A stretch of 64,000 nt of DNA from a virus. The position numbers and the translations under genes were made by a program. Location of the stretch: positions 28,875 to 92,874 of the IMG/VR virus record IMGVR_UViG_3300046501_000082; one strand, written 5' to 3'. The stretch's first letter is position 1. Each line of letters opens with the position of its first letter. The notes beneath the pieces were generated by a model. It did no database searches, was not told the DNA's origin, and saw nothing but the letters and a program-made list of their open reading frames with translations. This document shows positions 16,836 to 63,900 of this stretch, piece by piece.

Positions 16836-17072
16836 CATTCAGTTATTGAGTTCGCTAAACTCACTCCGCTTTCACGGAGAATCAGACTATATCACAAACT
16901 CTTTCGAGTTTCCTGCCGCTTCGAGTGCGCTTGCACCCTACTCCCTTCCGGGATAGTCGTTACACGTTCCTATTTCTAGGCTTCGCTCGGGATTGGCATG
17001 GCTTTCGCTTTAGCTTTCCCCGAATTCAACAGGTTATTCAATGCACTTCACAATGCAAGGCCACAATTATTT
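16836..17072 (-). ncRNA. Group I intron (237 nt, ORF-less, IA2-like) in the DNA polymerase gene
   Basis: 5' exon ends in U; P1 CCAU/GUGG with U-G pair; core elements AAUUCGGGGAA, AAUCCCGAGC, GUAACGACUA, GAUAUAGUC; terminal G; splicing restores the frame. Confidence 0.93.
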
Positions 17073-19250
17073 ATGGTACGCAATCATTTGTTGGCAATAC
17101 TTTTTACTTTTCCAATCGTCTTTAAAGAAATCTACCGCGAACCCTTCGGCTTTAAGCTTACGATCATGAATAACCATCGCTCGCTTTGCACAAATTACAC
17201 CTGCGCTTTGAAATCCACTGTTAATCACATTGCCTTTTGAACGAATAGGAAGTTTACGTTTATCAATACCTACAAGAAACTTCTTCTGTCCTGTTGTTTC
17301 CCAGTATTGCTGCATACGTTCTTTGAGTTCTTTGAGCGGATTAGCCAAAGTCCAGAACTCATCAAAAATAATCTGTGCCGTTTCTAGGTCACAACCAACA
17401 ATTTTAGCTACCCGTGCAACTTGGGCGTTGTAACTACATCCGTACTTCACAGATTTAGCGCTATTTCGTGGGAAATCACGGCCAATAATCTCTGTAATAC
17501 GGCGGGCCAATACAGAGTGACAATCATTAGGCTTTTCAGCAGTCAGACTTACACCGTACTCCGGGCCACCTTTATAACGGTACACATAATGACTTTCAAT
17601 CTTAGCCTCAAGGCTGTCAAAATCATAACCAAGTTGTACATAGCCTTCACCAACACCAAACAAACTCCTCATTTCCTCCCCGTAAAGGGATGTATTTCGT
17701 GGAATGTTCGCCACTAAACGATGCTTGAATCTGCTGGTCCCAGCGCCGCAAGTATCTGCTGGTGTTGGAATACGTCCATCCTCACGAACGTTCGGCATAA
17801 AACCACTTTCATGCTCTTCGTCATTTTCCTCTGGATCATACCCGCCCCCCAGAATACTATTACGGCGGTGGCTGTAAGTCAAGAAGTCAGCAAGCTTTCT
17901 AGCGTGTGGAAAGCTACTTTCTAGTGCAATAAGACCGGGGCAGATCTCTTTCTCTTGTCCTACCGTCAGCGTGGGGTTGGTTAACACTTTAAAGCTTTTA
18001 GCGCACCCTTTTGCCAACAACTTAGCCTTAATGTTGTTTTTATTAAGGTTCAAGTGCTCTAGACGATATTTGCAGAAAGGACTTGCTAGTGTCTGTTCAA
18101 CATATCGTTCTACTGCTGCTTCGAACTTCTCCTGTGTCAGACGGTTCTTCTTGGCATCACAGGTAAGATCACGCTCCTTCCAAGCGGAAGGGTTCCAGTG
18201 AAACTTAGACACTAGCCATTCTTTAATGTGGGTTGTGTCTTTCAAAGTTGATGGTACTTCAGTGAGCAATGGTACAGCAGGCATTGGTAGTGGATACTCT
18301 TTACCAAAGATTGTTGCTACGTTATCTTCACTAATTGTTCCTTCGTGTTTAGCTACAAACTTCTTAATGTTTTCATTAAGTTCGCCAGACTTCTTAAACT
18401 GTTTTTCCGAAGGTGTGTAGAAATCCATGCGCGTCTTAGCCAATGGTTTTGGTGGCAAGACAGGTTCAACTTCACTGCGCAAGGCCTCAAGTTTGATGTC
18501 AAGATCACGAACCAGTTCAATTGCACGTTCTGTCTTAAAGTCAAATCCTCGGTGCTCTTGGCGAGTGATAATCTCCGCAACAGACTTTTCCAGACTGATA
18601 GCGTCTAACCAATCCCAATCACCTTTCTCAGCCTCCAGCATCTTGTAAACTTTTGTGTTCGCCAAGACATCTATGATGCAATAAAATAACATGTCCGCTG
18701 CAAAATGTTTGAAACGAATAGATTCGTGAATGTGTTTACGAAAAGAATACTTGCGCAAGCCAGCTTTCTCAGACAAAGAGTCCAAGCTATGTCCGCCCAA
18801 CCTATCCGGGTTAAGCGCTTTGCTTATTACAAGTGTATCTTCAAATAGAACAGGTTTACCGCACCAAGTATCTTGTTCAACGGTGAAGTCCATATCTTCT
18901 TCAATCTTACCAACCATCAAGTCAAAATTGATCTGGTTGTGAGCCACCACTTTATGCAGTGGGTTGTTTAGGACGTAAGCCTTAAACTCAGCAATAGATC
19001 GCTTTTCAAACTCAAGAGGTTGATAGTTTTCAAGAAGATATGTTTGCCCCTCAATTACCTCTTCGTAACGGCGACCATCAAGAATATATTCAGGACCGTC
19101 ATAAAAGGCAATAATCTTACCAGTTTGATGTTCTTCCACAACAGTACAATGAGTCTTAAAAGTCTCTTTCAGCTTGAATGGGCTGCTTGTGTAATCGATA
19201 GCCTCTTGATTCAAAAGACCTGTTGTTTCCCGGTCCCAAGTAATATCCAA
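17073..19250 (-). CDS. DNA polymerase (family A, T7 gp5-like with 3'-5' exonuclease), exon 1; probable TTG start at 19250 after SD AAGGAG
   Basis: Exo motifs DRET, HNQINFD, YCIID; motif A YDFDSLE; motif B RNSAKSVKYG. Confidence 0.93.
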
Positions 19251-19254
19251 TTTC

Positions 19255-19899
19255 TTACTCCTTTGTTCTTCCAAAATACTTAATCTCGCCAGCAGCTCTG
19301 GCATCACAGGCTTCTTCGAAGGTGTCAAAATAGCCTAAGTTAATATCTTTTCTTTCAACCCCAATACGGGCACGCCACTTCTGTTGTTTTTCAACCCATG
19401 CCACACCTGTTCTGCCAGACTTGTTGTTTTTAAAGATACCTTTATTAAAGCTTTGAACTCTCCAAGTATCCCATACGCAGTTTTCTCTAGAGTAACCAAG
19501 TTTAGGATCTTCTCGTTCTAAAGTCAAACCCTCTTTATACGAGTCACCCATATCCCTCAAGAAGTTTTCAAACTGACGCCAGTCCTCTTGATCCAAACCA
19601 GCGCCCTTTCCTCCGTACTTATCCCAATTGGGGTCGTTTGGATTGGTGCAGCGTGAAACCATTGAACCCCATACAGCATAAATCTTAGATTTCCACATGC
19701 CATGTGTTCTATAAGAGCGTTCTGCTCTAAGGCAACCACACGATTGAGAATTTCCGTCTTTAATTTGATCCGCCCTAACTACTTTTTCTTTACCACAGTC
19801 GCACAAACAATTCCAGTAGGGCCTACCATTTTTAGATTCAGCAAAACTTATGATCGTCCATCTGTTATATTTATTACCTGTCAAGTCTTCGTGAGCCAT
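19255..19899 (-). CDS. Free-standing HNH-AP2 homing endonuclease
   Basis: WNCLCDCG...SCGC, WGSMVSRC, TLERED...Y..NCVW, C-terminal AP2-like GVAW...WRARI...LGYF. Confidence 0.85.
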   Translation of the reverse strand: MAHEDLTGNKYNRWTIISFAESKNGRPYWNCLCDCGKEKVVRADQIKDGNSQSCGCLRAERSYRTHGMWKSKIYAVWGSMVSRCTNPNDPNWDKYGGKGAGLDQEDWRQFENFLRDMGDSYKEGLTLEREDPKLGYSRENCVWDTWRVQSFNKGIFKNNKSGRTGVAWVEKQQKWRARIGVERKDINLGYFDTFEEACDARAAGEIKYFGRTKE

Positions 19900-19908
19900 T
19901 ATTAGTCC

Positions 19909-21555
19909 TTAAAAATCATCTGGAACTTCCTGAGCAAGCAATACTGCCCAAGTGTTTTCATCAATAGTAAATTCATCAGCAACACCTAGGTAACTCCACG
20001 GGCGATTCTTCAGAACAGTGAGGCGAACATTACCACGGCTTCGATCTGGCATAATCTGAGGCTCCAAACCAATAATGACAAAGCTCAATTGCTCCAGCGC
20101 AGAACTCCCGCGCATCATTTCCTTTGAAACTTTAACCCAAAACGGTTTGTCTTCATTTCCTTTTGGAGCTTTGAACTGTTCAGCGGCACTCCGGTTAATA
20201 TGGCTAACCGCAATAACACAAACATCATTGGCTGCACAGAATGCAGCAAGTTCAGTCATAACAATATCAAGTTCTTTACGCTCATCTGTTACATGACTTC
20301 CTGAAATAACCATACTCAAGTGGTCAATAAGAATAAACTTACAACCTTCAACCAAGTGCATATGTTTGACTTTGTTCATAAGCTCACTTACTGGCAAACT
20401 CCCAAAGTGGCCCAACATTACCAGCAAGTCATTATCTACGATTTCATCACGAGCTTGTGTGATCTGTTCGAGTGTTGCAGATTCCAAAGGTTTGTCTTTA
20501 AACTTCAAGTAACTTACTTTCAACTTAGATGCAATCAATCGTTGCATTGTTTCTTTATTACTTTCTTCCAAGTAAATCATACCAAGCTTTTCACCAGACG
20601 CCATAAAAGAACTGGCAAAAATAGATGTAACAGTTGATTTACCAACACCCGAGGGACTGGTGAGCAAAACTAGCTCGCGCATACGAAACCCATGAAGCTT
20701 ATCCATAAGCTTAGGGAATTCATTTACATACACACCCTCTGGCCGTGGCTCAAGCAACTCTTCAATGCTGATGTCAGATGCCTTAACAATCTTTTCAGCA
20801 GAATAAGCCCGTTTACCAAACTGAATAAGTTTAGCCAAGTCTTCGGCCCGATTAGCTTGCAAGTAATCAGAAGCATCTTTGAAACCGTCTGCTGGCACCA
20901 CTGTCATTAAAGACAAACCTGAGCCAACCAATGCGCTAGCAACAGCTTCACGGGCTTCATGGCCCTTCATAACGCCCTTCTTTGTTTCTGCTGGTGTGCA
21001 GTAATCATCATCAAAGAAAATAGTTAGGCTGTCGTGGCTCTTTACATATTCTTCATTGTGAAGCAAAGCTTCTACAGCATTAGCAGTACCGAGAGGGATA
21101 GAAACAACGAGTGGCTCAAGCCCCTCAAACTTTGTACCTTTTACATTATCGACAGCCGCCTGCCATACACTAACACAGTCCCATTGGCCTTCTGTCGTAA
21201 TAAGATTAGTCCGTTTTCGATTGGTATTTTCTGCAACTTCTTGGCCAAACAATTTGTTGCCAATAGAGACACTGCCAACAGCAGTCCAGTGACCTTTCTC
21301 GTCTTTTCCTTTAGTCACATCTTGTTTAGTGTAGCCAACAACTTTACCTTTCTGGTTATAGGAAGGGAAATAGAAAGATTCTGGTGTCTTACCATCTTTT
21401 TCAGAGACAGCAACTTTAACACCAAAGCGTTCAAGAGTAGCTTTACGTACTCCACGGTCTGGTGCATCGAATGTTGCGTATTTATTTACTTCATCAACTG
21501 TTTCTTTTGTAAAAACTTCCACTTCTCTCTCCTTCAATTTTTTGAAATAACTCAC
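19909..21555 (-). CDS. DNA primase (TOPRIM)-helicase (SF4) fusion
   Basis: TEGQWD, FFDDD, KDASD; Walker A SPSGVGKS; LIDHLS, VSHINR, RGSS, KNR. Confidence 0.93.
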   Translation of the reverse strand: MSYFKKLKEREVEVFTKETVDEVNKYATFDAPDRGVRKATLERFGVKVAVSEKDGKTPESFYFPSYNQKGKVVGYTKQDVTKGKDEKGHWTAVGSVSIGNKLFGQEVAENTNRKRTNLITTEGQWDCVSVWQAAVDNVKGTKFEGLEPLVVSIPLGTANAVEALLHNEEYVKSHDSLTIFFDDDYCTPAETKKGVMKGHEAREAVASALVGSGLSLMTVVPADGFKDASDYLQANRAEDLAKLIQFGKRAYSAEKIVKASDISIEELLEPRPEGVYVNEFPKLMDKLHGFRMRELVLLTSPSGVGKSTVTSIFASSFMASGEKLGMIYLEESNKETMQRLIASKLKVSYLKFKDKPLESATLEQITQARDEIVDNDLLVMLGHFGSLPVSELMNKVKHMHLVEGCKFILIDHLSMVISGSHVTDERKELDIVMTELAAFCAANDVCVIAVSHINRSAAEQFKAPKGNEDKPFWVKVSKEMMRGSSALEQLSFVIIGLEPQIMPDRSRGNVRLTVLKNRPWSYLGVADEFTIDENTWAVLLAQEVPDDF

Positions 21556-23673: not shown

Positions 23674-23820
23674 AAGATAATCCACTATCCACCCCGAGTC
23701 AAGGGGTGTGCTGAAATATTTTCAGAAGACAGTCTGAAGACGTGTGGAGAATGTCCGTAGACGAACAGGCACAAAGGTTTGAAAATAATTGTTGACAGGG
23801 GGGTTTGGGTGAGGGATGCT
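23674..23820. promoter_or_regulatory. Divergent sigma70 promoter pair at the block boundary
   Basis: Minus: TTGACT-17-TATCTT; plus: TTGACA(23792)-17-GATGCT. Confidence 0.7.
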
Positions 23821-25134
23821 TGGCTACACATTTTATTGGAAGAGGTTGCAGAGATGAGAGTTTATATTCTGTGTTCGGTTGCTGGTCACTACAAAGGCGT
23901 GTTCAAGTCACGTAAAGAGGCTGAGGAGCATGCTATTAATGAAGAAATGCTTGGTTATGAAATCTTTATGGATGTATTGAACAAATGAACACAACCAACG
24001 GTACAGATTGGGATAAATGTGGTAATGCTATGAGTAATAATACTACGATACATCACCAGCAAGAGGACGCCCCTCTGTGGCTTAGCGCTGAGGATATTCG
24101 GGAAATGTTGAAGGAATTGGAGGGTGAGGAATGATTGACTACAAATTGTTGTATGAAGAGAGCTTAAAAGAGAATGAAAAACTAAGGCTACTCCTAGGGC
24201 GTGCACATAAACGCATAGACTCTATGCGAACTCGATATAAAGGGACGGGCAGTGATTACCTAGACTGTGTTCTGGGCATTGGTGGGTTTGAGCAATATGG
24301 TCCGATTAAAGGTGTTAAGGGGTTGACAGACGATGAATAATTCTTATGATTTCATACCAGACACGTCCACCTGTTATCAGATAGACGACACAAGATTCTT
24401 TGAAATTCAAGCTGACAAAGAGTCTGTTGAGCGCTTTATTAAAGACTTAGAATTGTTTGAGAAGAAGAGTGCTGAAGAGGGGGAATGATTGTATGAATTC
24501 TGCTCACGTTCACTGCTACTCCTGTGAAAACATATCATGTTCAAAAGCTTGCTTTAGGCTGTGTGTTCGTGAGATGATGTGCCATTGAAATTAATTGATT
24601 GGAGAGAAAGGTATGGCCAGGTTTAAAGCAAAGAAGCTAATCTGGATGCTTGAAGATATTCTTGACAAAGAACAAGAACTTCAGGCGGGTATTAATGCTT
24701 GGAATGATGAGAATGAAGATCCTAGCAACCAAGCGGGTTGTGATCCATCCGACCAATATCTTTTAGGTGAAGAGGTTGAAGGTTTGTGGGAAGAATTTAA
24801 GAAAGAGGTGAATGAAGCATGAAACATATACAATCAGGCGAAGTGCGGGCTATGTATGATAGCGGTCAATTCTCTATGCAAGAGGCGAAGTACACTCTCA
24901 AGAAAGAATATGCTAATGATGCTCTGTTTGACGCCATCAATAAATGGAATGGTGGACTTCCTCAAGAGGCTTTCATGGAGCTTATCGAAGTGGTTAGCTA
25001 TTTGGTAAATAAGGAATGACTGTGATCCAGTGTGAAAAAGTGGCTTTAGGGAATGCCCTACAGGCCACGTATTCATTGACTTTGTTATCATTTTTGTACC
25101 CATATGAACAGAAGAGGAAGAAGGAGTTGGAATA

Positions 25135-26418
25135 GTGATAGAAGATGTAGAAGAGTACAGCCTTAAGAGTAGATTGTTAACCTACAATATTAATATCTCT
25201 ACATCTGTAAGGAATAAGATTAGATACATAAATAAGATAGAAGATAAAGAGTTATCTGCTGTTATCATAGTTAATCTCATATCTTGTGTTAAGAGACAGG
25301 AGAAGCTTCTGTACTCACGACATAAGGGTAATCACAGTACGTCTGTAACTAAGTACAACAGACGTGGTATACAAACACACAGACTGTTGAAATGCATTGA
25401 CACCCTTGAAGCTTTAGGCTATATTGAGAACTTCGTGGGTAAAGGTCATATAGATAAGGAAAAGAGAATTATGTCTTACATCACACCTTCTGAAGCCTTT
25501 ATTGCTGAGTTCTGTTCTAAAGATGAGGAAGTACAGAGCGCTATTGCTGCTTATAATGCCAGCCTTCAGACTATTATCTTGCGTAATGAATATGGTAAGG
25601 CTATTGACTATCAAGATAATAAGAATATTAAAGCTGCACGTAAGGTTGTAGAGAAACTAAATCGTATTAATGAGTTGCATGATATTAAAGATGGTGAAGG
25701 GAATGTCATGACTAACATCTATTCTCGTATTTTTAATAAAGATTTTGAGCATGGTGGTCGCTACTTTCATTCGGATGCTTTGAAGATTAAACACAAGAAG
25801 ACTAAGGCCCGTCTGGATATCACTATCAATGGTGAGCAGGTTGTAGAAATTGATTTTTCTAACCTTCACTACAGGCTTGCCAGTTTGATGGAACAGATAA
25901 GTATGGAGAACCTTCCACTTGATGTGTATATGGATATTCTGCCCGAGTGTTTGCAGAATGATGATCACCGTGAATTGATTAAACTTTCTATTAACATTCT
26001 GTTCAACTCTAAGACTGAAGATAGTGCTGATCGTGCAATAAACAAAGAGATTACAAAGTTTAAATCTCAAGGTTGGAATATTGATAAGAGTCTAAATACT
26101 GGTAAAAAGGTACGAGAACACATTTACATCATGACACCAGATTTTATTCCTTGTTATTGCCGGGATGATTCGTTCGGTCTTGCATTGCAGAACGCAGATT
26201 CATACCTTGCACAGCGAGTAATTGAGAAATTTGTTGACGAAATGAAGCCAATCTTGCCTATTCATGACAGTTTCGTGGTCAGGATGTCTGACGTGGGGCT
26301 TTTGGAGAATGCAATGGGAGACGCTTTTCGAGAAGAATTTGGAATTGCTTCGCTAATTCCCTTGAAAATGTCTTGGAAAGATGCTAATGTGCTTCAAGAA
26401 AGTAAAATCTTAGCGTAA
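25135..26418 (+). CDS. Minimal PolA/T7-RNAP superfamily polymerase-like protein, paralog 1
   Basis: GGRYF; motif A VEIDFSNLH; motif B RELIK; LQNADS; motif C PIHDSF. Confidence 0.7.
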   Translation: MIEDVEEYSLKSRLLTYNINISTSVRNKIRYINKIEDKELSAVIIVNLISCVKRQEKLLYSRHKGNHSTSVTKYNRRGIQTHRLLKCIDTLEALGYIENFVGKGHIDKEKRIMSYITPSEAFIAEFCSKDEEVQSAIAAYNASLQTIILRNEYGKAIDYQDNKNIKAARKVVEKLNRINELHDIKDGEGNVMTNIYSRIFNKDFEHGGRYFHSDALKIKHKKTKARLDITINGEQVVEIDFSNLHYRLASLMEQISMENLPLDVYMDILPECLQNDDHRELIKLSINILFNSKTEDSADRAINKEITKFKSQGWNIDKSLNTGKKVREHIYIMTPDFIPCYCRDDSFGLALQNADSYLAQRVIEKFVDEMKPILPIHDSFVVRMSDVGLLENAMGDAFREEFGIASLIPLKMSWKDANVLQESKILA

Positions 26419-36314: not shown

Positions 36315-37228
36315 ATTTGTGAAACTAATCTGAAACATCGCTTGCATAGGGTGTTTTCTTTATGTTATCCTGTCTCTACGGCCACTGTGGGTGCTATTCG
36401 GGGTTAGATAAAATCTATGGCAGGTCTACCTTTAATAGAAATCTTTGTGTGTACATCACTGGTGGATATAGATAAACTGATCCCATCAGAACGAAACACA
36501 CAAGGAATACAAACATGACTTTTAAAGAATACGCTTACAGCTTCCTAGCTACTATCTTGATCATCCCTGCTATCGTCTACCCTATCCTTTGCTTCATGGA
36601 ATATGTCGCTCGAATCTGTGTAAACTCTTAAAATAAACTGTTGACAGGGGTTAGAGATAACCCCATAATACGTACACACAAGCAAACAACCTTCTAGGAG
36701 AAACACCATGACAATCGCCAACGAAATCAAAGCAATCAATGTCTCTGCAAAGAAAATCCACGGGGCTGATATCTCCCTGATGGTTGCACGGGCTATTCAC
36801 TTTGGTCATGATGATAATCTTGTAATCATCAGTGGTAAGAACCACAAGGCAGCTGCTAAAGACTTTGCAAAAGTGATTGCTAACGCAACGCTTACAGAAG
36901 AGTTCCACCCTGAGATGGATTGGGGTGATGGTGAAGTGAGTCCAGCCTACACAACTACTTTGGTAAAATTCTAAAATAGTTGTTGACTGAGTGATGAAAG
37001 TCCCTCATAATCACCCCATCGAAACGACAAACCTTCTAGGAGCAACAACTATGAACTTCCAAGCCAACCAAGCAATCACACTGATCAAGACCAACATCAT
37101 CAATGACAAGAAGCTTATTGGCAAGAAAGGTGTTGTAGACTTCCAGTGTAAAGACGGTATGGTGTGGGTGAAGCTTGGCCGGAGCAGTCGGTGTGTACCA
37201 CCAGAATTTATCCAAGCAATCTAAAACA

Positions 37229-37253: not shown

Positions 37254-38209
37254 TCTGAAATTTACTGAAAATAGCCTATTGACATGTACTTGACTCCATC
37301 AACGACTTGAAGCGATAATATAGTATCGTCTTGCCCAAACACACAATATTAAATCTTAGGCACTCTCCCTTCTCAGGAGTGGCCCAGTGAGACTATTATG
37401 GCAAAGGTGGACAGGTAGGTCAACACATAATCTCACTTATTTTAATAAAAATACCCCTTTACATCCCCAAGCGCTCAAGGCATAATCTCTACATTGAACC
37501 CAACCAAAGAGACTGCCCGGAGGGCAATACACATGAAATCTCTCATCTCTTTCTGTAAGCAATGCATCTCCTATTACAAATCCTTGACAGATAGTCAGAA
37601 GATGTATACAGACTTGGGGATTTGTGTTGCAAGCTTTGTTGTGATATGTGTTTTGTGGAGTATCAGCTGACGCTGCATCCTAACGGACAGCTAAAGCTGT
37701 GTCGTAAACGACTAGCTGAAAATAGTTGTTGACAGGGGTAGGTAGAATTGAGAGAATAGCTCATCGAAACAGCAAACCTAAAGAGTAAACACCATGAAAA
37801 CCAAATCCTACAAAGAACCTAAAGCTTTGATCGAAGCTCGTGCTCTGGTTAATACCTTACCTTTTGGTACAGAAGCTTGGGAAGCTGCGATGGCAAATGT
37901 TCGTAATCTTGTACAGGCTGAAACTGATGCTGATCAAGCTCTTCTCAATCATCGTTGCAAGTTTGATAGGGATTGATTATGAGTGTTCTAGTTCATTATC
38001 CTAGAGATGGCATCACCTACATGAAAGGTCATTGTGGAGCACACTCTGTAAGCTCATGTAAGATACTTAATATGATTACATGTCCTGTGTGTATCAAGAT
38101 GATTAAAGAATTTAATCTTAAGACTGAATAATCCTTGCACACTCCTTTCAGTCTGTTATAATTCTCTCACACCAAAGCGAAAGCTTAAACCAGAACAGAG
38201 GATATAGAG

Positions 38210-39509: not shown

Positions 39510-40460
39510 CTAGCAGGAAATTATTCTAGCACCGCATTGTGGGGCTTAGTCTATTAACACTATTAATAAATACCCTCTCTACTATACTTTCTGTTGATAG
39601 TGCAAATCCCTTCCAAACCCTTTATCTGTATAGTATTAATGACTACAGTGATAGAGTCTTTTTGACTGCTTTCTAGTGTCTATCAGTGTCGGAGAGATTG
39701 ACCGGTAGGTTAAGCTCGATACACATTCCCTCCTATAACCACCCTCATCCCAGCATCACACTCCCACTTATCTGTCAACAATTATCTAATCCAATAGCTT
39801 TATATCATCACAATGTATTAAACGATAGTTTTTGTCTAAGAGATGTCAGTCGACTTGCACAGGACATACAATGTGCTAAGACACACAGACTACAGGGTAC
39901 AGTCAAGTCTTATCTTCCCATTGTCCATTAACTATGCCTATCGGGTAACATTTAACGGAAAACCAGTTCAACGAACAGTTACATTATGACTCAGTTAGTT
40001 ATGAGTGATATCTATCGATCAGTGAGTTGGTATAGGATATGCATGGAATAGTCTTAGGTGATTGGTCTAGACTGATTGATAGAGTATAGAAGTAATCTAT
40101 CATATTTGAACGGTTTATAGAGATTGTCTATGGTGGGTAGCTAGAGCATTAAGCACCTCAGCAAGATATCCAGTAATTTTGAAAGTATGAACCCTTATAA
40201 ATAAAGGCTTTCAAGGATATTTGCACACAGAAAAGTAAAGAGTCACTAATACAAGCTGACTCCCAAAATAGAAAAATGGTTGATATTTACAACTAGAAGA
40301 ACCCTTAAAGATGAAGAATAGAAGTAAGAGATAAATAAGAAAAGAGTGCTTTTTGCTCTTACTTAAAACATATTTCTATACCTACTTCCTTTAGGGCAAC
40401 ACCTCTGTAAGCCACGTAGTACAAGGGCTGAGGTGTAATTTTAGTACTTTTAAACAGAAA
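39510..40460. other. ~950-nt non-coding convergence region; candidate replication origin or genome-end region
   Basis: No credible ORF; 8 GATAG/CTATC pentamers; A-rich tract; two copies of the GCC-N11-GG motif. Confidence 0.5.
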
Positions 40461-40466
40461 TAAATA

Positions 40467-41774
40467 CTAAGTCATATTTCCACCCATCCAATCTTGGAGC
40501 AAGCCTCTCATACGACTACTGGGAATATATAGGTTTATAGGTTCATCTTTCCTAACCCTACTCCTGTAGATCCATTGTATAAGCTCACTCAAAGGATACC
40601 TATTCTGATCTGGTGCAAACTCAACACCTCTGTCTAACAAATATTTGTATGGTTCAGGATGTATGTAAGAGTTATAGATATAGGCTAACTGACTTGTTTC
40701 CATGTAGTCGTTCACAGCTTTAGTATTGTGAGCAATATGACACTTAGTATATCCAGCACCTTTGAATGTACTAAAGGCTTCTCCTAAACAAGTCCATAGC
40801 CTGTCTTCTGTGTTTGACTTGCCATAGGTACTGTTTCTAAAGTAGTTACCAAGGTTAGCCTTCACTGTAACAGCCGTAGCGCTATCTTTCGCATACCTCT
40901 TCTGGTCACTTACTGAGAAAGCAGTTTCTCGATCACCAATACGATTCATCTTTGGATTGTCAATGATGTTAATCAAATCAAAGATGTTAGATTGCATTTG
41001 AATACCTAACTTTGTTTCGTGCTGAATACCGTAGAAGTCTAGATATTTCTCAAACATAGACCCTTTGAACAAGTAGGTTAATACTTCAACCTTGTCGAAT
41101 GCTTTGATAAATTCAATAGGATATTCCCACATGAACAAGTCACGATTACCTTTCTCATCTGCAATGAGTACAAGACTGCCATTGTCACATAGAGCTTTGA
41201 TTTGCATATCCCAGCTAAAGCCAGAGCTATCTAGGTCTTTGATATCATCAATTGGATAATCTTCATTCCAACGCAAAAGCCCTAACTCATCCTCGTAGAT
41301 AACATTAGAGCCTAGTAACATCTTACGTCTGTGCATCTTACAAGGGTGTGGTCTAATACATTCAAGCTCCTCATCAATTACAAGAGTGTAGCCAGCGTCT
41401 TTTACATCCTTCACTGTTTCAGGTGTGAAGAGCTTAAGTGCAGCATGTGTTGTTACAATATCACGTCCCTCATGTACAAGCTTTGCAATGTGTTCAACCT
41501 TTGTCTTGTAACCAGAGATAGGGTGTTCAAACCTACGTCCAGATGCACTACAGCCTTCTCCTGTGTATATTATATTTCCATGATCATCTTTGCTGGGTAG
41601 TTGTTTATCTGCACTGTCTTTATCAATCACTGTGCCAGCATATCTGTGACACTCAGCCAAGAAAGGAGTAACAACAATAAATCTCCGATCTTTGTCAGAG
41701 TTATTAATCTTATCAATCATTCTCCATGATTTACCCGTTCCGGGAAGTTCATCGTACACAATTACTTTAGTCAT
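40467..41774 (-). CDS. P-loop SF2/DEAD-like helicase-related protein (possible origin-binding protein)
   Basis: PGTGKS Walker A, IVTTHA, LVIDEE Walker B, SELIQWIYRSRVR motif VI-like. Confidence 0.7.
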   Translation of the reverse strand: MTKVIVYDELPGTGKSWRMIDKINNSDKDRRFIVVTPFLAECHRYAGTVIDKDSADKQLPSKDDHGNIIYTGEGCSASGRRFEHPISGYKTKVEHIAKLVHEGRDIVTTHAALKLFTPETVKDVKDAGYTLVIDEELECIRPHPCKMHRRKMLLGSNVIYEDELGLLRWNEDYPIDDIKDLDSSGFSWDMQIKALCDNGSLVLIADEKGNRDLFMWEYPIEFIKAFDKVEVLTYLFKGSMFEKYLDFYGIQHETKLGIQMQSNIFDLINIIDNPKMNRIGDRETAFSVSDQKRYAKDSATAVTVKANLGNYFRNSTYGKSNTEDRLWTCLGEAFSTFKGAGYTKCHIAHNTKAVNDYMETSQLAYIYNSYIHPEPYKYLLDRGVEFAPDQNRYPLSELIQWIYRSRVRKDEPINLYIPSSRMRGLLQDWMGGNMT

Positions 41775-49529: not shown

Positions 49530-50357
49530 TTAACCCTTCTCAAAGTAAAATGCTTTAACCAAAGCCTTCGTAAGCTTACTACGACGACCACTATCTTCAA
49601 ATGTGAAGTTTACAAAACCAATATTGTTTTCCAGTTCATAAATATCCTCGGCGTCCAGAAACTTAGGTGGATTGGTTTTAATGCTGTCAAGAAGTTGGCT
49701 CAAGTACAACAAGCCTGTTTCCTTCCTGATATCTTTTTGACGCCAGTCCCCAGTCAAGCATAGCTGAGCACCATCACCAACCCTCGTAGTCATCATTTGC
49801 ATAAGGTCAGTGTCAAACCCTTGCGACTCCTCACAGAGCACCATAACACCATCCTCAAAAGAGTATCCTCTCAGCCATTCTACGCTTTTGAACTCCACAA
49901 CTTTCTTTTCAAGCATATACGCAAGTTGTGCTTTACCAAGAAACTTACTTAGATGCTCCAAGATACTAGTAAAAATCATTGACAATTTTTCGGTTTCGGA
50001 ACCGGGGACCGCACCTATTGTTCGACCACAAGATTCGTATGGACGTACCAAAAAGAGTTTATGAATCGCTTTGTCTCGCAGTTGGTTAGCAGCGTGCCAT
50101 GCAGCAAGAATTGACTTACCACCGCCTGCCGGTCCCTGCAATGCCACAATTTTACGTCCCTCTTGCAAATAATAAGCACCAAGTTTCTGTGCTTCACCGA
50201 TAGGCGTAAAGGGCATTGCGTTAAAAACCTTTTCTTCAGCAAACTTATCCCGATTTACAGCAGAACCCCCTACTTTAGTTTTACGTGTCCGAGTACGTGG
50301 GACCGAAACTTCGATTCCGTCAACTTCTACAATCGTCTGCCGATTTTTAGCACCCAT
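49530..50357 (-). CDS. phoH: PhoH-family ATPase
   Basis: GPAGGGKS, LVRP, GAVPG, LRGYSF, EESQ, TRVG, GDWRQKD. Confidence 0.92.
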   Translation of the reverse strand: MGAKNRQTIVEVDGIEVSVPRTRTRKTKVGGSAVNRDKFAEEKVFNAMPFTPIGEAQKLGAYYLQEGRKIVALQGPAGGGKSILAAWHAANQLRDKAIHKLFLVRPYESCGRTIGAVPGSETEKLSMIFTSILEHLSKFLGKAQLAYMLEKKVVEFKSVEWLRGYSFEDGVMVLCEESQGFDTDLMQMMTTRVGDGAQLCLTGDWRQKDIRKETGLLYLSQLLDSIKTNPPKFLDAEDIYELENNIGFVNFTFEDSGRRSKLTKALVKAFYFEKG

Positions 50358-51532
50358 CAGTCTGTTACCTCAACTTTCCAATTAATAAGGGATGTGTAAA
50401 CTTGTGAATTAATTTCAGATTTGTATTTCTCTGCAATTTCTTTTACAACAGACTCTTTAGCTTCTTTGTAAACCAAGAAAGCTTGTTCAGGTGTTGCAAA
50501 CCTCCCTAAGCAAATCCTACGACCTTCACGATTAATCTGAGCAATAAATTTGCCAGACTTTGCTTCTTTATGTACACCTAGTGGATAGTCACCTCTCTTA
50601 TTACCCCGCAAAGTAAACAAATTATTAATAGCTACAGGAACATACGAGCATTTATCTGGTGAGTAAATTTTATTACCTTGCTCAATAATATCTTTATCCA
50701 AACACCAGTCTTTATTTTTAATAAACTCCGGTTGAGATTCAGACCAAGCAGCAAAGTTCTGAAAACAATGCCACACTTTATGTACAGAGCAACCAACGTA
50801 GGTAATATTCTTTTTCAAGGACTCTTCATCATAGCAACGAGTGATCATGTTAGACCAGACAGTCCATAGCTGTAGAGAGTTTGCTGGTGAATATGTGCCC
50901 TCACCAATATACCCAACACCGGCTACACTCAAACGATAAGGGTTCCTAATACCGCGTTTTGCATCATTCCTAAGGACAACCTTCTCATAACCAAAAGAGT
51001 CCAAGAACTTAATTCTACATTTAGCTCCAGCCAAAAGTTCAATAATCTCAAATGTAGATCCGTAGAAATTCTCAATAATTTGACCAACTTCAACAGCGGG
51101 CTTCCGCTTTATCCCAGTCTTCTCATACTTAATTGTCGGCAGTAATGGTGTTGCCAACCAATCACGAATTGATCCATTCTTAATCTCTTTTACTGCACTC
51201 CAAGCCTCAAATCCAGACTTAGTAAACTTAACCTTAACTTTATTTGATGTTACATACTCTACAATTTCAAAGTCAAGGCCTTTCTTATTTTTAAGGACTT
51301 CACCTATAGCTACAGCAGGACGAAGATTGTTTTTACCGTTTTCACGAATAAGCTCTTTTTGCAAGCACCGACAAGATTGAGTCTTACCAGCCAATACACT
51401 ATGCACATCAGTTGTAGTTTCATTACCACATGAGCAACTGCACACAAATTTAGGCTTCGGATTACGAACTACACCAATGATTGTCAGTCTGCCATAAACT
51501 TCTCCTATATGTTTTGAATAAAAATCTTCCAC
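50357..51532 (-). CDS. Free-standing HNH-AP2 homing endonuclease with N-terminal repeats
   Basis: CSCSCG..SCRC, WSNMITRCY, LDKDII, RGDYPLGV, LGRF. Confidence 0.85.
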   Translation of the reverse strand: MEDFYSKHIGEVYGRLTIIGVVRNPKPKFVCSCSCGNETTTDVHSVLAGKTQSCRCLQKELIRENGKNNLRPAVAIGEVLKNKKGLDFEIVEYVTSNKVKVKFTKSGFEAWSAVKEIKNGSIRDWLATPLLPTIKYEKTGIKRKPAVEVGQIIENFYGSTFEIIELLAGAKCRIKFLDSFGYEKVVLRNDAKRGIRNPYRLSVAGVGYIGEGTYSPANSLQLWTVWSNMITRCYDEESLKKNITYVGCSVHKVWHCFQNFAAWSESQPEFIKNKDWCLDKDIIEQGNKIYSPDKCSYVPVAINNLFTLRGNKRGDYPLGVHKEAKSGKFIAQINREGRRICLGRFATPEQAFLVYKEAKESVVKEIAEKYKSEINSQVYTSLINWKVEVTD

Positions 51533-54027: not shown

Positions 54028-54130
54028 TCTTACAGCCTATCCTTGTGGAATGCAAGCATGATTTGGGGAAATTTATCAAACTATTTGTGTGAGGGGTGGG
54101 GTTGACACTGACAGAAATGTAGCGTAGTCT
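54027..54130. promoter_or_regulatory. Divergent sigma70 promoter pair
   Basis: Minus: TTGCAT-17-TAAGAT (54055-54027); plus: TTGACA(54102)-17-TAGTCT. Confidence 0.75.
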
Positions 54131-54249
54131 TGCTCATATCAGTGCTGCCTTAAAGCAGTGCATAAAAAGAATTATTTCCTGAGAGCCTTTATCTATAAGG
54201 CTTACAGCGATTTATGGTCCACTACCTAGGAGGATAAGGAATATGATGT

Positions 54250-55596
54250 ATGAGGATTGATTTATGGAGTATAGATAAGAAAGAGAGAGTACAGATACAA
54301 ACTAAGCTTACACACTTTAACATCCACTACAATCAGACTAAGCAATACAAACACATTGTAGACGAGATAATGGAGTTAGGGGCAGGGAAGAAAGAAGTTT
54401 GGTGCGTAGTAACAAATATAGCTCGTGCTCTTAAATACAGAGCTATTGGTTTATCTGTCCCTAGGCAGCGTAGTGCCTATTCCAACAACGAACAGGGGAT
54501 ATCTCAGCGTAGGATGGTTATTCTCCTTGACAAGCTTGAGGAGAATGATTACACTGATAACTTTACAGGTGGTGTTGTAGATTGGAAAGAGATGGATACA
54601 GTACAAAGTTGTATTGTGTTTAAGCAAAAGCTTCTTGACTTGTTCATTGGTGTAGATGTGAGTCAAGAGCAAGACTATTTCAATGTTGTTGAGATTAAAG
54701 ACAGGGAGACAAAAGAACTCAAGTCTAAATCCGGTGTTCGTGGTGTTAAGATTATCACGGAATACATGAATGCCTACAATCAGCAACTAATGAATACAGA
54801 AATTAGTGATGAGACAGGATTGTTATCTGTTCAACAATATAAAAGAGTCTTCTCGGACAATCTCCGACAGGGCGGAAGGATTTACAACACTGCTGGAGGT
54901 GTTCAAGTGAAGAATGAGGAAGAGCGTAGTTATATGAAGATTAATGGTGAAGAGATTGTTGAGCTAGACTTCAAGGCCATGCATCCAAGCCTTCTGTATG
55001 AGCAAGAGTATGAAGAGAACTCAGAAGATATTGATGATTGGATTAAGAACACTTGGGGTGGTGAGTATAATCCTTATGGTGCAAAGATGCCTTTTCTTAA
55101 AGTGAATGAACAGAAGGTTGAAGCGTTTAAGAATACATTTGGTCTCTCAAAGTACGATCCTATTCGCAACCTTAATAAGCATGCACTGATGGTCAGCCTG
55201 AATGCCAAGACATATCAGAAAGCCTATGTGCAAGTGACGGAGGAGTTTCGTGCTGATCAACTTGGATGGGATAACCTCACTAAAGATGCTAAGTTTTATG
55301 GTATTGAGTCAGTGGGTAACTTTCCGGGACACACAGTTTGTCAAGCTGTAGCTGCACATAATAAACCAATCGCTAAATACTTCTTTAAGGATCAAGGTAT
55401 CAAGATGCAGTATTTGGATAGCGAGATTGTTGCAGATGTGTTGAACCGGTTGCTTATGGAAGATGAAGTGTTGCTTCCTGAGCATGACAGTGTGATTGTT
55501 CGTGCAAGTATTAAAGACAAAGTGATTGGCTATATGCGTAGTGCCTATTTAGAGTTAATGGGTTCTGATAAGTTTTGTTATTTGGAGGTTAAGTGA
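54250..55596 (+). CDS. Minimal PolA/T7-RNAP superfamily polymerase-like protein, paralog 2
   Basis: GGRIY; motif A VELDFKAMH; motif B RNLNK; MQYLDS; motif C PEHDSV. Confidence 0.7.
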   Translation: MRIDLWSIDKKERVQIQTKLTHFNIHYNQTKQYKHIVDEIMELGAGKKEVWCVVTNIARALKYRAIGLSVPRQRSAYSNNEQGISQRRMVILLDKLEENDYTDNFTGGVVDWKEMDTVQSCIVFKQKLLDLFIGVDVSQEQDYFNVVEIKDRETKELKSKSGVRGVKIITEYMNAYNQQLMNTEISDETGLLSVQQYKRVFSDNLRQGGRIYNTAGGVQVKNEEERSYMKINGEEIVELDFKAMHPSLLYEQEYEENSEDIDDWIKNTWGGEYNPYGAKMPFLKVNEQKVEAFKNTFGLSKYDPIRNLNKHALMVSLNAKTYQKAYVQVTEEFRADQLGWDNLTKDAKFYGIESVGNFPGHTVCQAVAAHNKPIAKYFFKDQGIKMQYLDSEIVADVLNRLLMEDEVLLPEHDSVIVRASIKDKVIGYMRSAYLELMGSDKFCYLEVK

Positions 55597-57581: not shown

Positions 57582-57653
57582 TGGCTGATAGTGAAACGGT
57601 TATCACATGTCCCTTTGACGGACACATTCTCTGTTCGAATCAGAGTCGGTCGG
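57582..57653 (+). tRNA. tRNA-Gln (UUG), CCA not encoded
   Basis: Cloverleaf: D arm GTGA/TCAC, anticodon arm TGTCC-CTTTGAC-GGACA, T arm CTCTG-TTCGAAT-CAGAG. Confidence 0.85.
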
Positions 57654-58586: not shown

Positions 58587-60812
58587 ATGAGTATTATCCC
58601 GAGTAAGAACAAAGTAACAATCATTGAAGGCGAAGACAACGATCTTTCCCAATGGCCAGCCAACCAGTTACCTTATAAAACAGACGAAGGTATGATTGAA
58701 GGCTCTGGTCTTCGTATCCTATCATCTGGCACTCTCCTAGCTCCTGTGGGCTTTGCTGTAGAAAGTGGGTCGATTGACTTTGGTGATGTTCTACGTCTAT
58801 CTGAGTCAGCAGGCTTTCTAGCCTTTGAGAATATGGTTGATAGAGAGAAGTATCAACTTCTTGATTACGCAGTGCCTCGTACAGCTCCATCATCCAAACC
58901 TTATTATTTCAAACTGATTGAAGCTGAAAGAAAAGCTTTGAATACAGATGGTGATTCTGTAGTAACAACAAATCCTCTTTCTTTTGAATACCGTACCCTT
59001 CTAACAGCTCGTACAAACTCTATTACTTTCAAAGCTACAGCAGCAATGACTAATGTCAGGTTGCGTATCAGAGATAAGGATTCAGACGTTGCTGTCAAAT
59101 ACTTTCCCTCTAAATCTGCTTGGGTTGAAGGTGTAGGTGGTACGGGGTTTACTGTTGGGGATAATGTTCTAGACTTTCAAGATACAGCCTTGATCTTTCA
59201 AGCCGGTACAGACATTATCTTTGATATAGTTGCTGACAATGTATCACTTTCAGCTAGTGCTGGTATTCCTAAGTTCTCAGCAATGGTTCAAGAGGGTGTA
59301 TTTGTTGGTGTAGCTGATGTTACAGAAATTGCAAACATTCAAAGTCAAGTGGATGATCTGGATAGTGGATTCTCTGGTATATATGCTGATTTAACTGGCA
59401 TTCCAGCGATGTTTACACCAAGTCCTCACCAGCACTCTATCTCTGACGTTATCGATCTAGAAGACACTATTTCTTCACTGTCTGATGCCATTGAGAGCGC
59501 TAATGGAAGCCTAGATGACTTAGCTGTTGTGGCAACCACTGGTGATTATCAGGATCTGCTAAATAAGCCTTCTATCCCAACTGTAAGCTATCCTGTCACT
59601 TCTATTAATACCAAAACGGGTAGTGTTGTCCTCACAGCAGCAGACGTAGGGGCTATTGGTGTTGGTGAGGGTATTAATTACTCTCAGATTACAAATCCTC
59701 CAACTATTCCAGTAGCACCAACTAACACGTCTCAGCTTATTAATGACAGTGGCTATATCAGTTCTGTTACATATCCTGTGATAAGTGTTAACGGTAAGAC
59801 TGGCAGCGTAGTCTTGACATCTGGTGATGTAGGGGCAGCCTCGTTAGCTCACAGCCATCCTATCAGCGATATTGCAGGACTACAGGCAAGTCTTGATAGT
59901 AAAGCATTAGCCTCATCTCTTGCAGATTATGCAACCAATATCTATGTTACAAATGGATTATCCCTTAAGCTTAATACGCCTAGTGGTAACACTAACCAGT
60001 ATATCCGTGGTGATGGAACGTTAGCATTATTTCCAGCTATCCCTGTGTCAAGCGTAAATGGAAAGACTGGTGTAGTAGTTCTCAATCCTACAGATATTGG
60101 TGCAGCAGCATTCGGGCACACTCATGTTATTTCTGAAGTGGTTGGCCTACAAGCTACCTTGGATGGTAAAGCTTCAGCAAGTGATTTGTCTGGATATGCT
60201 ACAACTACTGCTCTGACCACAGGATTGGCTGGGAAGTTTAATAATCCGACAGGTACAACTGCTCAGTATGTAAGCGGAAATGGATCACTGGTAACATTCC
60301 CTGCAATACCAACTGTTCCAACAAACATAAGCGCTTTTACTAATGATAGTGGATATGTCAATCAGGCTGGGGCAAGAAGCTCTATTAGTTTGACAACTAC
60401 AGGGTCAGGAGCAGCAACTTATAACTCCAGCACTGGTGTATTAAACGTTCCAGCACCGACTACAAGAACTTATGCAAACCCTGCACGTACACTGAACTCT
60501 GCTTTTCAGATAAGTGCTACAAGGGATGCTATGGTCAGCTATGCTGTAGATATTACAGTGAGTGCTTTAATAGTAGGTGGTACATCAGGAAGAGTCTGGT
60601 TAGAGTATGCTAACGAAGTTGGATTTACAACAGGGGTTACAGTTGTGACTTCCTCTGGTGCTTCTACTAGTGGTGTTCTTAACGTAACCGTTCTTGGTAC
60701 AGCTAATCTTACAGGGCTGATCCCTACGGGTAAGTTTGTAAGACTTAGGACACAGAACGTTACAGGTACTCCTACATATAGCTTTCAATCTTCGCAGGAA
60801 GTTGTTGTTTAG
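58587..60812 (+). CDS. Fibre-like virion protein with phage tail repeats
   Basis: 3x V.S[IV]N.KTG.VVL...D[IV]GA, 3x H.H.IS[DE][VI]..L, 2x NDSGY repeats. Confidence 0.7.
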   Translation: MSIIPSKNKVTIIEGEDNDLSQWPANQLPYKTDEGMIEGSGLRILSSGTLLAPVGFAVESGSIDFGDVLRLSESAGFLAFENMVDREKYQLLDYAVPRTAPSSKPYYFKLIEAERKALNTDGDSVVTTNPLSFEYRTLLTARTNSITFKATAAMTNVRLRIRDKDSDVAVKYFPSKSAWVEGVGGTGFTVGDNVLDFQDTALIFQAGTDIIFDIVADNVSLSASAGIPKFSAMVQEGVFVGVADVTEIANIQSQVDDLDSGFSGIYADLTGIPAMFTPSPHQHSISDVIDLEDTISSLSDAIESANGSLDDLAVVATTGDYQDLLNKPSIPTVSYPVTSINTKTGSVVLTAADVGAIGVGEGINYSQITNPPTIPVAPTNTSQLINDSGYISSVTYPVISVNGKTGSVVLTSGDVGAASLAHSHPISDIAGLQASLDSKALASSLADYATNIYVTNGLSLKLNTPSGNTNQYIRGDGTLALFPAIPVSSVNGKTGVVVLNPTDIGAAAFGHTHVISEVVGLQATLDGKASASDLSGYATTTALTTGLAGKFNNPTGTTAQYVSGNGSLVTFPAIPTVPTNISAFTNDSGYVNQAGARSSISLTTTGSGAATYNSSTGVLNVPAPTTRTYANPARTLNSAFQISATRDAMVSYAVDITVSALIVGGTSGRVWLEYANEVGFTTGVTVVTSSGASTSGVLNVTVLGTANLTGLIPTGKFVRLRTQNVTGTPTYSFQSSQEVVV

Positions 60813-62099: not shown

Positions 62100-62190
62100 C
62101 GATAATGTTGTATCGCCAGCCAGCCCCAAGCAAGCAGCCTTTCTCAAGGCTGTTTCAGAAAATGATATAGTCCTCTTCGGAGGCGCGGCT
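62092..62190 (+). CDS. terL: Terminase large subunit exon 1 (not in ORF track)
   Basis: MSDDNVVSPASPKQAAFL...VLFGGAA; joins GSGKS to form Walker A. Confidence 0.9.
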
Positions 62191-62423
62191 TAACACTATG
62201 GGTCGCGTAAAACCCCTCTAATTGCTGGAACTCTCAAAGAGACAATCAGCAGCGAAGGCTTAGAAATAAGTAACGTTCAGAGACTATCGAAAAGACACTT
62301 TAAAGTGGAACTTAGTAGAGTAGGTTGCAAGTGCAATCGAAACGGGGGGCAACTTAATAGTTGAAGATATAGTCCGATTCTTTCAGCAATGGAAGGAAGT
62401 TTAACGAACTTCATAAGTATTTG
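62191..62423 (+). ncRNA. Group I intron 1 in terL (233 nt, ORF-less)
   Basis: P1 GCGGCU/GGUCGC with U-G; AAUUGCUGGAA, AAUCAGCAGC, UCAGAGACUA, GAUAUAGUCC; terminal G. Confidence 0.93.
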
Positions 62424-63641
62424 GGTAGTGGTAAAAGTTATCTGGGGGTAATGGCTTTTCTTCAGTGGGCACAAGATCCCGCTATGGAAAAGTTTCGTGG
62501 AGTTATTCTGCGAAGGACGATGGTCCAAGTGACAGGCCCCGGCGGTCCGGCTGAGACTGGACAAGAGATTTACCAACAGTTTGGTGCTCAGTTTAAAATT
62601 AAAGACAGTAAATTTATTTTTCCGAATAAAGCTACTATTGTTTGTAAGGGCTGTGAGCAAGAGAAAGATAAGCATAACTTCCAAGGCTGGCAAGTTAGTG
62701 CATTTCTAGTTGACGAGGCTCAGCAGTTCGAAGAAAGTCAAGTGCTTTATTTCATCTCGCGGATGCGTACAGCAGCACCAATGAAGCCTGTGATGATGAT
62801 GACGGCGAACCCTGATTATAACAGCTACCTCCGTAAGTGGCTAGAAGATGCAGGGTATTTGGATGAACGTGGCCTCCCTCGTAAAGATCGTGATGGTAAA
62901 CGTATGTGGTTCATCCGTATAGACAACCAAATGGTCTGGAATGAATCAAAGGAAGAGTTACTTGCGACCTACGGTGAAAACTGTGGTCCTATGTCATTCG
63001 TTTTCCTGCCTGCAAATTGTCACGATAATCCAGTTTTGCTTCGACGTGATCCATCCTACGCCCATAAACTTATGAATATGCCTCGCGTAGAAATGGAACG
63101 CCTTTACCTCGGCTCGTGGTATGCGAAAGAATCTACAAGTGGCTTCTTTAAGAAAGAGTTTTGTACTCCCGTAAAACTACACGAACAGAATATCGTCTCT
63201 TACTGCCGTGCGTGGGATATCGCCGGAAGTTTGCCCAGTGAGGCTATGCCAAATCCTGATGCAACAGCTGGCGTCTTGATAGCTAAGACAAAATCTGGAA
63301 GATATATTGTTGTGGATGTAGTTAGGTTCAAAGCTAGGTTTGGTGAAGTCATGCAACGTATGATTGAAACTGCCAAATCAGATCCTGAAGGAACTCAGAT
63401 TCTTCTACCTCAAGAGCCTGGCCAAGCCGGAAAAGCAGCAGGTCAAATGATGATTAAAGAACTCCTTGAAGAAGGGTTCTATGCTCGCATGCGTCCAACT
63501 AACAAGTCTAAGGTAGTTCGTTTCCAACCCTTCGCAGCAGCAGCCGAAGCTGGCCTTGTTGACTATGTAGAAGATGCTTGGAACGATGTTTACTTCGACG
63601 AGTTGGAGCAATTTGACGGAAGTCGAAAAAATAAAGACGAT
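62424..63641 (+). CDS. terL: Terminase large subunit exon 2
   Basis: GSGKS, VDEAQQF, TANP, AWDIA nuclease motif, ends KNKDD. Confidence 0.93.
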
Positions 63642-63900
63642 TTACTAATCTTGGTCGTCTATAAACCCATTGAATTCGGTGGACATCTCATTAGAGACAA
63701 TACCGAGCGAAGCTAGAGAAATCTAGAACGTGTAACGACTATCGAAAACACACAGTAATGTGGAAGTGAGTAGAGTAGGGTCAAGTGACCCGAAGCGGTG
63801 GGCAAACAATTTTGTTTGAAGATATAGTCTCCTCTATATAGTGATATATAGCAGTCCCAATGGACTGAATAAGAATTAACGACTCTTATTTAAGATGATG
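63642..63900 (+). ncRNA. Group I intron 2 in terL (259 nt, ORF-less)
   Basis: P1 GACGAU/GUCGUC with U-G; GAAUUCGGUGG, AAUACCGAGC, GUAACGACUA, GAUAUAGUCU; terminal G. Confidence 0.93.

Follow-up and report, generated by a model that had tools for sequence, protein, structure and literature searches.

Members of the divPolA2 family, described by Yutin, Tolstoy, Mutz, Wolf, Krupovic and Koonin ('Two novel phage PolAs', Virol J 2024, 21:200; PMC11348598), are phage relatives of the family A DNA polymerase (PolA) with an active palm, no thumb and no exonuclease. They carry a globular domain at the N terminus for which no similarity could be detected, are encoded in variable early regions and are known to occur as 2–3 paralogs per genome (PMC11348598). 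The same work proposed that they function either as repair DNA polymerases (DNAPs) or as RNA polymerases (RNAPs); the name divPolA2 was not found in the later literature that we searched. Here we analyze two such genes, A and B, in a stretch of 64,000 nucleotides (the window; positions 28,875 to 92,874 of IMG/VR virus record IMGVR_UViG_3300046501_000082), which belongs to a complete phage genome of 92.9 kb that has direct terminal repeats and whose nearest isolate is Pseudomonas phage vB_PsaM_M1.

A and B are anciently diverged members of divPolA2. A first-pass annotation of the window had presented them as an uncharacterized, novel system, a claim that does not hold, because the family, its paralogy and the RNAP idea are already published. 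New here are the assignment of the N-terminal domain as winged-helix-like, an associated 33-bp site with orphan copies, the coincidence of a homolog with the replication origin of phage ICP1, and promoters of the early-gene type. We put the probability at about 45% that A and B are site-specific initiator polymerases, docked by the winged helix on a cognate site where they would make a primer or a short RNA and, in addition, regulate their own genes.

Two diverged divPolA2 genes in one genome

Paralog A (25135–26418, plus strand) encodes 427 amino acids from a GTG start, and paralog B (54250–55596, plus strand) encodes 448; both open reading frames (ORFs) have the positions and sizes originally assigned to them. 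BLASTP aligns the two proteins end to end with 23% identity (E=1e-15), and both fall into phrog_4756, a family without assigned function (E=3e-56 for A and 7e-77 for B). Exactly two copies of the family are found by profile search in the whole 92.9-kb genome. Searched by sequence, Pfam and the PDB hold no significant match to A, to B or to the family profile: neither protein has a Pfam match at E≤1, and the profile matches no PDB sequence.

The link to divPolA2 is direct. The exemplar AUR84708 matches B at E=9e-9 over 307 amino acids, A at E=1e-5 and the family profile at E=1e-38, and A (E=5e-5) as well as B (E=1e-10) finds 115 of 115 Rheinheimera barbavirus records. The hallmarks of the family recur here, namely an active palm, no canonical thumb or exonuclease, an extra N-terminal domain, a regular DNAP encoded alongside, and paralogs; the regular enzyme in this genome is PolA, not PolB. 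At E≤0.001 the family comprises 11,602 clusters at 50% identity, and in sequenced phages it is represented by 239 records.

To describe conservation we use an alignment of 53 diverse homologs, about 20–95% identical, with columns numbered as in B. The columns G209, R210, R226, D240, Y276, R306, K310, S391, H412 and D413 are invariant, and H245 (51/53), N318 (52/53) and S414 (49/53) nearly so. They belong to the motifs GGR[FY]Y, VExD[FY]..[LM]H, RxxxK with Asn at K+8, LQ..DS and LP.HDS. Every polymerase motif that the first-pass annotation had listed is thus present in both proteins and lies in conserved columns, including the unusual Asn of motif B; the predicted N-terminal helix [IL]D.LE..Y..NF.G is likewise found in both, and the catalytic aspartates D240 and D413, whose conservation had been set as a check, do not vary in any of the 53 homologs.

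A minimal polymerase core with a winged-helix-like domain

An AlphaFold2 model of B built with an alignment (predicted local distance difference test, pLDDT, 95.3; predicted template modeling score, pTM, 0.89) matches more than 100 family A DNAPs in a Foldseek search of the PDB, with E values of about 1e-5, and the catalytic core also shares fold similarity with the core of T7-like single-subunit RNAPs. Palm and fingers occupy residues ~144–448 and contain the motif A Asp (D240), the RxxxK of motif B and the HD of motif C (D413); the Pfam sequence model DNA_pol_A (PF00476) is unmatched. The pair of metal-binding Asp residues, the Arg of the hairpin and the fingers motif are retained, and A and B have neither an exonuclease nor a canonical thumb. 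The right-hand PolA/T7-RNAP core without exonuclease, originally proposed from motifs, is supported by model and structural matches.

The only structural matches of B residues ~40–140 are to winged-helix domains. When this domain was folded separately (pLDDT 85.8), the top matches were all winged helices of the MarR, PadR, CodY or TFE type, with weak scores, in support of the helix-turn-wing-like N-terminus noted earlier. In the model the N-terminal domain looks like a MarR/PadR-like winged helix, which is a new assignment relative to the published family description.

In PolA, motif A reads DYSQIELR and includes the steric-gate Glu, motif C reads HDE, and a further motif reads Q..AAD; motif C of T7 RNAP is HDSF, and both enzymes have a Tyr in motif B. 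In the 53 homologs motif A (D[FY]S.[LM]H.R) parallels the PolA sequence, with His in 51/53 at the position of the steric-gate Glu (D+5), and motif C is HDS[FV], the form of T7-type RNAPs, as opposed to the HDE of PolA. With positions equated by motif alignment, not by superposition, the steric-gate Glu, the motif B Tyr and the motif C Glu are replaced by His (51/53), Asn (52/53) and Ser (49/53), respectively. Judged by its residues, the active site is mosaic and corresponds to neither of the two standard types, DNAP or T7-type RNAP. These replacements bear on the choice between ribonucleotides (NTPs) and deoxyribonucleotides (dNTPs): the loss of both DNAP-typical glutamates argues against a strictly dNTP-specific enzyme and suggests that the protein is not a standard dNTP-only DNAP.

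These features bear on a different reading, in which A and B are specialized DNA-dependent DNAPs for repair, gap filling or lesion bypass and the winged helix only tethers them to DNA or autoregulates the gene. The top structural matches are PolA DNAPs, motif A parallels that of PolA, LQ..DS parallels Q..AAD, and two members are called 'DNA polymerase' or 'DNA polymerase I' in their source annotations. Repair is also one of the two options of Yutin et al. We nevertheless regard such a role as unlikely: thumb and exonuclease are missing, neither the steric-gate Glu nor the Glu of motif C is retained, and a sequence-specific-looking winged helix with an associated site, described below, would be unusual for a repair polymerase. 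The copy number of 1 to 3 and the location of the genes in early blocks of small ORFs also speak against it.

A 33-bp quasi-palindromic site accompanies the genes

The leaders of divPolA2 genes from both clades, whose proteins are only ~20–40% identical, share an element of about 33 nt with a mean column identity of 64% (alignment A6). It consists of a CT..AG flank, a GCC(T)T arm, a center of 7–9 nt often containing CCACG, a GG(C)(Y) arm and a T..AG flank. No earlier report of the element was found in the literature searched.

In the window, the copy in the leader of B (54178–54210, plus strand) lies between the promoter and the Shine-Dalgarno sequence, scores 15.5 bits with a position weight matrix (PWM) and is conserved in B-clade leaders; scores for the window were computed with its own rows left out of the matrix. 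It is followed by a second conserved box next to the Shine-Dalgarno sequence (54211–54233, plus strand), in which TGGT..ACTAYCT is invariant in alignment A2. Upstream of A there is a partial, inverted copy (25040–25087, minus strand; 4.8 bits), of which only the 3' half is present, inside a hairpin at 25040–25068; the inverted arrangement recurs in three sister lineages (L010, L015 and L040). The best match in the whole genome, at 29.5 bits, is an orphan canonical A-type element (40402–40434, minus strand) with no divPolA2 gene behind it; maxima in shuffled sequences averaged 12.3 bits and reached 23.2 at most. A second copy of the B-leader core palindrome lies nearby (40193–40209, minus strand) and is identical in 16 specified bases to 54184–54200, a pattern that was chosen post hoc. 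Both orphan sequences are kept in the relative G005. The shared cis motif claimed by the first-pass annotation therefore exists, and is stronger and more general than stated, whereas its plus-strand reading at 40389–40418 has to be given up in favor of the canonical element on the minus strand.

Association with the genes was assessed in 24 loci that had not been used to build the PWM. In 20 of them the top match in the ~22 kb searched fell within 220 nt upstream of the divPolA2 gene, which is expected by chance in ~1% of cases per locus. Some of the loci are close relatives, so the number of independent lineages is below 24; the association is seen in at least seven distinct sublineages. No site was found near ORF100 of ICP1 or in Vibrio phage 1.063.O.

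In several lineages the element lies on the strand opposite to the gene, and this occurrence in either orientation favors a site acting at the level of DNA over an RNA leader element. Its dyad symmetry is pronounced: with a hairpin specified by hand, 75.7% of cells pair, compared with 28–56% when partners are slid. Covariation in the element does not exceed that of shuffled alignments, as the arms are conserved in sequence, and RNAalifold predicts no structure for the cross-clade element alignment; we accordingly dropped an RNA structure supported by covariation. An alignment restricted to the B-clade has compensatory changes in 3 of 10 pairs, which is suggestive only. The B leader matches no Rfam family, and no second copy of its hairpin was found in M1 or in the relative G001.

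Probable early promoters and turnover of the paralogs

The predicted promoter of B (54102–54130, plus strand) is sigma70-like, with the -35 box TTGACA (54102–54107), a 17-nt spacer and the -10 box TAGTCT (54125–54130); the -35 box is conserved in seven relatives. In six of six B-clade relatives the B homolog comes first among the plus-strand genes that follow a minus-strand block, a syntenic position that is kept from 51 to 94% identity. A similar promoter heads the plus-strand early block that contains A, with TTGACA at 23792–23797 (plus strand) as part of repeat family D5, other copies of which lie near 36639 and 37727. Given the conserved box at B and the similar promoter ahead of A, both are most likely early genes read by the host RNAP. 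The location near the start of a plus-strand block, as annotated, applies to both: B comes first after the divergent junction, and A lies ~1.3 kb into its block, past several small ORFs. Downstream of A and B lie unrelated genes that belong to no PHROG.

Two further observations concern these regions. A 22-nt AT-rich-plus-TTGACAGGGG element occurs in three plus-strand copies (23780–23801, 36629–36650 and 37717–37738), probably strong early promoters with an upstream element. The predicted B transcript begins with a 5'-terminal hairpin (54139–54165, plus strand) that has equivalents in L004, L001 and L006, where the stem sequence differs and pairing is kept; it may stabilize the mRNA.

A maximum-likelihood tree separates a B-clade, joined by ICP1 ORF100 with support of 99/95, from a diverse A-clade (98/99). 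Across relatives there are one to three copies; some genomes have only B (M1, G003), others B with a decayed A (G001), both A and B (the window, G002 and G004) or two A-type copies. The decayed A-type copy (L067/L068; G001:C1:58397–58872, minus strand), of which only N- and C-terminal fragments match the profile, points to ongoing loss of paralogs. Since A is missing or decayed in relatives, it is dispensable, and the copy numbers rule out an obligate A/B heterodimer; the twin polymerases of the first-pass annotation are not a fixed pair.

The same data weigh on a general phage transcriptase, that is, a mini single-subunit RNAP for middle or late genes whose paralogs serve different gene classes. 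Searching the intergenic regions by k-mer enrichment revealed no T7-style, long multi-copy promoter motif, only ribosome-binding-site strings and a few GGGGTTGACA-type boxes. A genome has only two to three copies of the conserved site, whose distribution follows that of the polymerase genes, consensus sigma70-like promoters are found in late regions as well, and relatives manage with B alone. We consider this function quite improbable.

Orphan sites and the YonV-like neighbor

The orphan at 40.4 kb is not the only one of its kind. In G002 two sites accompany two divPolA2 genes, a one-to-one ratio, and G003, which has B only, carries one site at B and an orphan of 37.5 bits; the orphan of G005 is at the same place as in the window. 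In all three genomes with an orphan (the window, G005 and G003, two of them independent) it adjoins a gene for a YonV-like protein. In the window and in G005 the orphan begins 33 nt downstream of the stop codon of this gene, and in G003 it lies upstream of a homolog with 32% identity (E=8e-68), 66 nt from the start.

The protein in the window (40467–41774, minus strand; phrog_2467) is a YonV-family P-loop protein resembling superfamily 2 (SF2) helicases, with Walker A and B motifs. It belongs to clusters with YonV_C, and DEAD/ResIII domains are detected on a minority of members. Whereas its identity as a P-loop, helicase-like protein holds as annotated, its proposed membership in a module with the two polymerases fares less well. 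The gene is absent from the relatives G001, G006 and G007 and does not stand beside any divPolA2 copy in 46 loci compared; in sequenced phages it is found in 56 records (SPbeta, Acinetobacter and Fusobacterium phages) that barely overlap with the divPolA2 records, contrary to the co-occurrence of the three genes that had been proposed as a check. Scant overlap and absence from relatives indicate a local association, not a conserved three-gene module; an obligatory module is weakly supported, and the protein counts as a neighbor of the orphan sites rather than as an established partner. We also considered whether the 40.4-kb orphan could be the leader of a third paralog that was lost by recent deletion; this receives no support, as there is no coding remnant and no adjacency of YonV-like and divPolA2 genes in the 46 loci.

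Orphan sites, together with copy numbers of 1–3, the decayed copy in G001, the location of the genes in variable early regions and the joint travel of gene and site in either orientation, would suit a selfish or regulatory gene-plus-site cassette. This could be a winged-helix factor that regulates its own gene and has an accessory polymerase domain or, in the spirit of the transposon-virus polymerases (TV-Pols), a mobile initiator-origin module that phage genomes gain and lose. The catalytic residues, invariant across very diverse homologs, and the syntenic position of B speak against such a cassette, and no integrase or transposase is encoded nearby; we think it rather improbable.

A homolog near the early replication origin of ICP1

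ORF100 of the Vibrio phage ICP1 (555 amino acids) is a divPolA2 homolog with both the winged-helix and the polymerase parts and with intact catalytic residues. In ICP1_2006_E it occupies 58,951–60,618. Working with this isolate, Barth et al. reported an early peak of bidirectional replication at 8 min, close to 60 kb, and noted that ICP1 has no obvious RNAP for priming the origin in the T7 manner. Reviews of ICP1 likewise state that no phage RNAP is predicted and that it is not understood how transcription and origin firing are controlled. ORF100 thus coincides with the mapped early origin, at kilobase-scale resolution only; no finer mapping of this origin was found in later papers.

As a side observation, a gene for an acyl-carrier-protein-like protein lies just upstream of the divPolA2 homolog both in ICP1 (ORF97; L003 4315–4635) and in Vibrio phage 1.063.O (NVP1063O_042; L002 26886–27200). 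The shared neighbor may reflect synteny or a functional connection.

A model for site-specific initiation

In addition to A and B, the genome encodes the PolA replicase (17067–19328, minus strand), whose gene is interrupted by a group I intron, and a gp4-like primase-helicase (19909–21555, minus strand). The latter matches its PHROG profile only from position 103 of 801, consistent with the missing N-terminal zinc-binding domain noted before. A and B are therefore, as annotated, extra to the replicative polymerase, and with a full replisome already encoded they are not the replicase.

If A and B are site-specific initiators, a single chain would combine an N-terminal winged helix with a minimal PolA/T7-RNAP-type palm-fingers core. 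The winged helix would dock the enzyme on its cognate ~33-bp quasi-palindromic site, beside the polymerase genes or at orphan copies, and the docked core would start template-directed synthesis de novo, giving a primer or a short RNA. This product could mark or open a replication start for the T7-type replisome of PolA and gp4-like primase-helicase, which has no T7-type RNAP, while binding to the copy in its own leader would autoregulate the gene. More broadly, divPolA2 might be a new functional class of winged-helix-guided single-subunit polymerases, each starting synthesis at a cognate ~33-bp palindromic site, that serve many marine, soil and vibrio phages, ICP1 among them, as initiators at specific origins, with paralogs defining separate initiation sites; for the family as a whole we hold this to be doubtful.

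Other features of the genome

The genome also encodes RNR, ThyX and PhoH. Three group I introns (Rfam, 74–86 bits) are located at 62129–62396 (plus), 63586–63851 (plus) and 16863–17083 (minus); two of them, which contain the 87-nt repeat D2 (62238 and 63693), flank or interrupt the large terminase region, and one interrupts the PolA gene. A single tRNA gene (57582–57653, plus; Rfam, 48 bits) lies downstream of the B block. An HNH endonuclease of 391 amino acids (50357–51532, minus) with a weak AP2 domain, probably a homing endonuclease, is encoded beside PhoH and a ClpP-like protease. A search of sequencing runs gave only word shares of 0.08 or less.

Comparison with known systems

Compared with divPolA2 as published, for which neither N-domain similarity nor a cis element was given, the genes described here have a winged-helix-like N-terminal domain and a 33-bp site. 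T7-like and mitochondrial single-subunit RNAPs are about twice the size of these proteins (448 amino acids for B) and differ in having an N-terminal promoter-opening domain, a specificity loop and a thumb, all of which divPolA2 lacks; in place of the promoter-opening domain there is the winged-helix-like one. In divPolA2 the motif B Tyr is changed to Asn, motif A is PolA-like and there is no Pfam RNA_pol match, and in contrast to T7-like systems the intergenic regions of this genome hold no multi-copy conserved promoters.

TV-Pols are predicted, and CcPol-MP has been shown, to prime DNA synthesis, and these enzymes are associated with helicases (Iyer 2008, PMC2579912; Bebel 2020; Rice 2023, PMC10061031). 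Like them, divPolA2 is a minimal PolA core without nuclease, encoded by a viral or mobile genome besides a regular replisome. TV-Pols, however, have retained a thumb of two helices and are paired either with D5-like helicases or with an N-terminal domain that is all-helical, none of which is evident in A and B, and CcPol needs an OB-fold partner encoded directly downstream, for which no equivalent is evident at A or B. Profile A1 had no match in the genome of Ma-LMM01, a phage with a reported TV-Pol.

A defined 33-bp site and a candidate DNA-binding domain provide a concrete substrate and make the question of RNAP, primase or repair DNAP testable at the bench, for a very large family that reaches a model phage, ICP1, in which no phage RNAP is predicted. 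If A and B indeed initiate de novo at specific sites, no right-hand polymerase of that kind would be smaller, and they would inform the question of how the PolA/T7 lineage came by its RNA and DNA polymerase activities. A conceptual parallel is with origin-specific plasmid primases and initiators such as ColE2 Rep and RSF1010 RepB', in which an enzyme that makes primers is guided by a DNA-binding domain to one particular site, either adjacent to its own gene or distant from it; the likeness to divPolA2 is one of concept alone, as the catalytic folds are unrelated.
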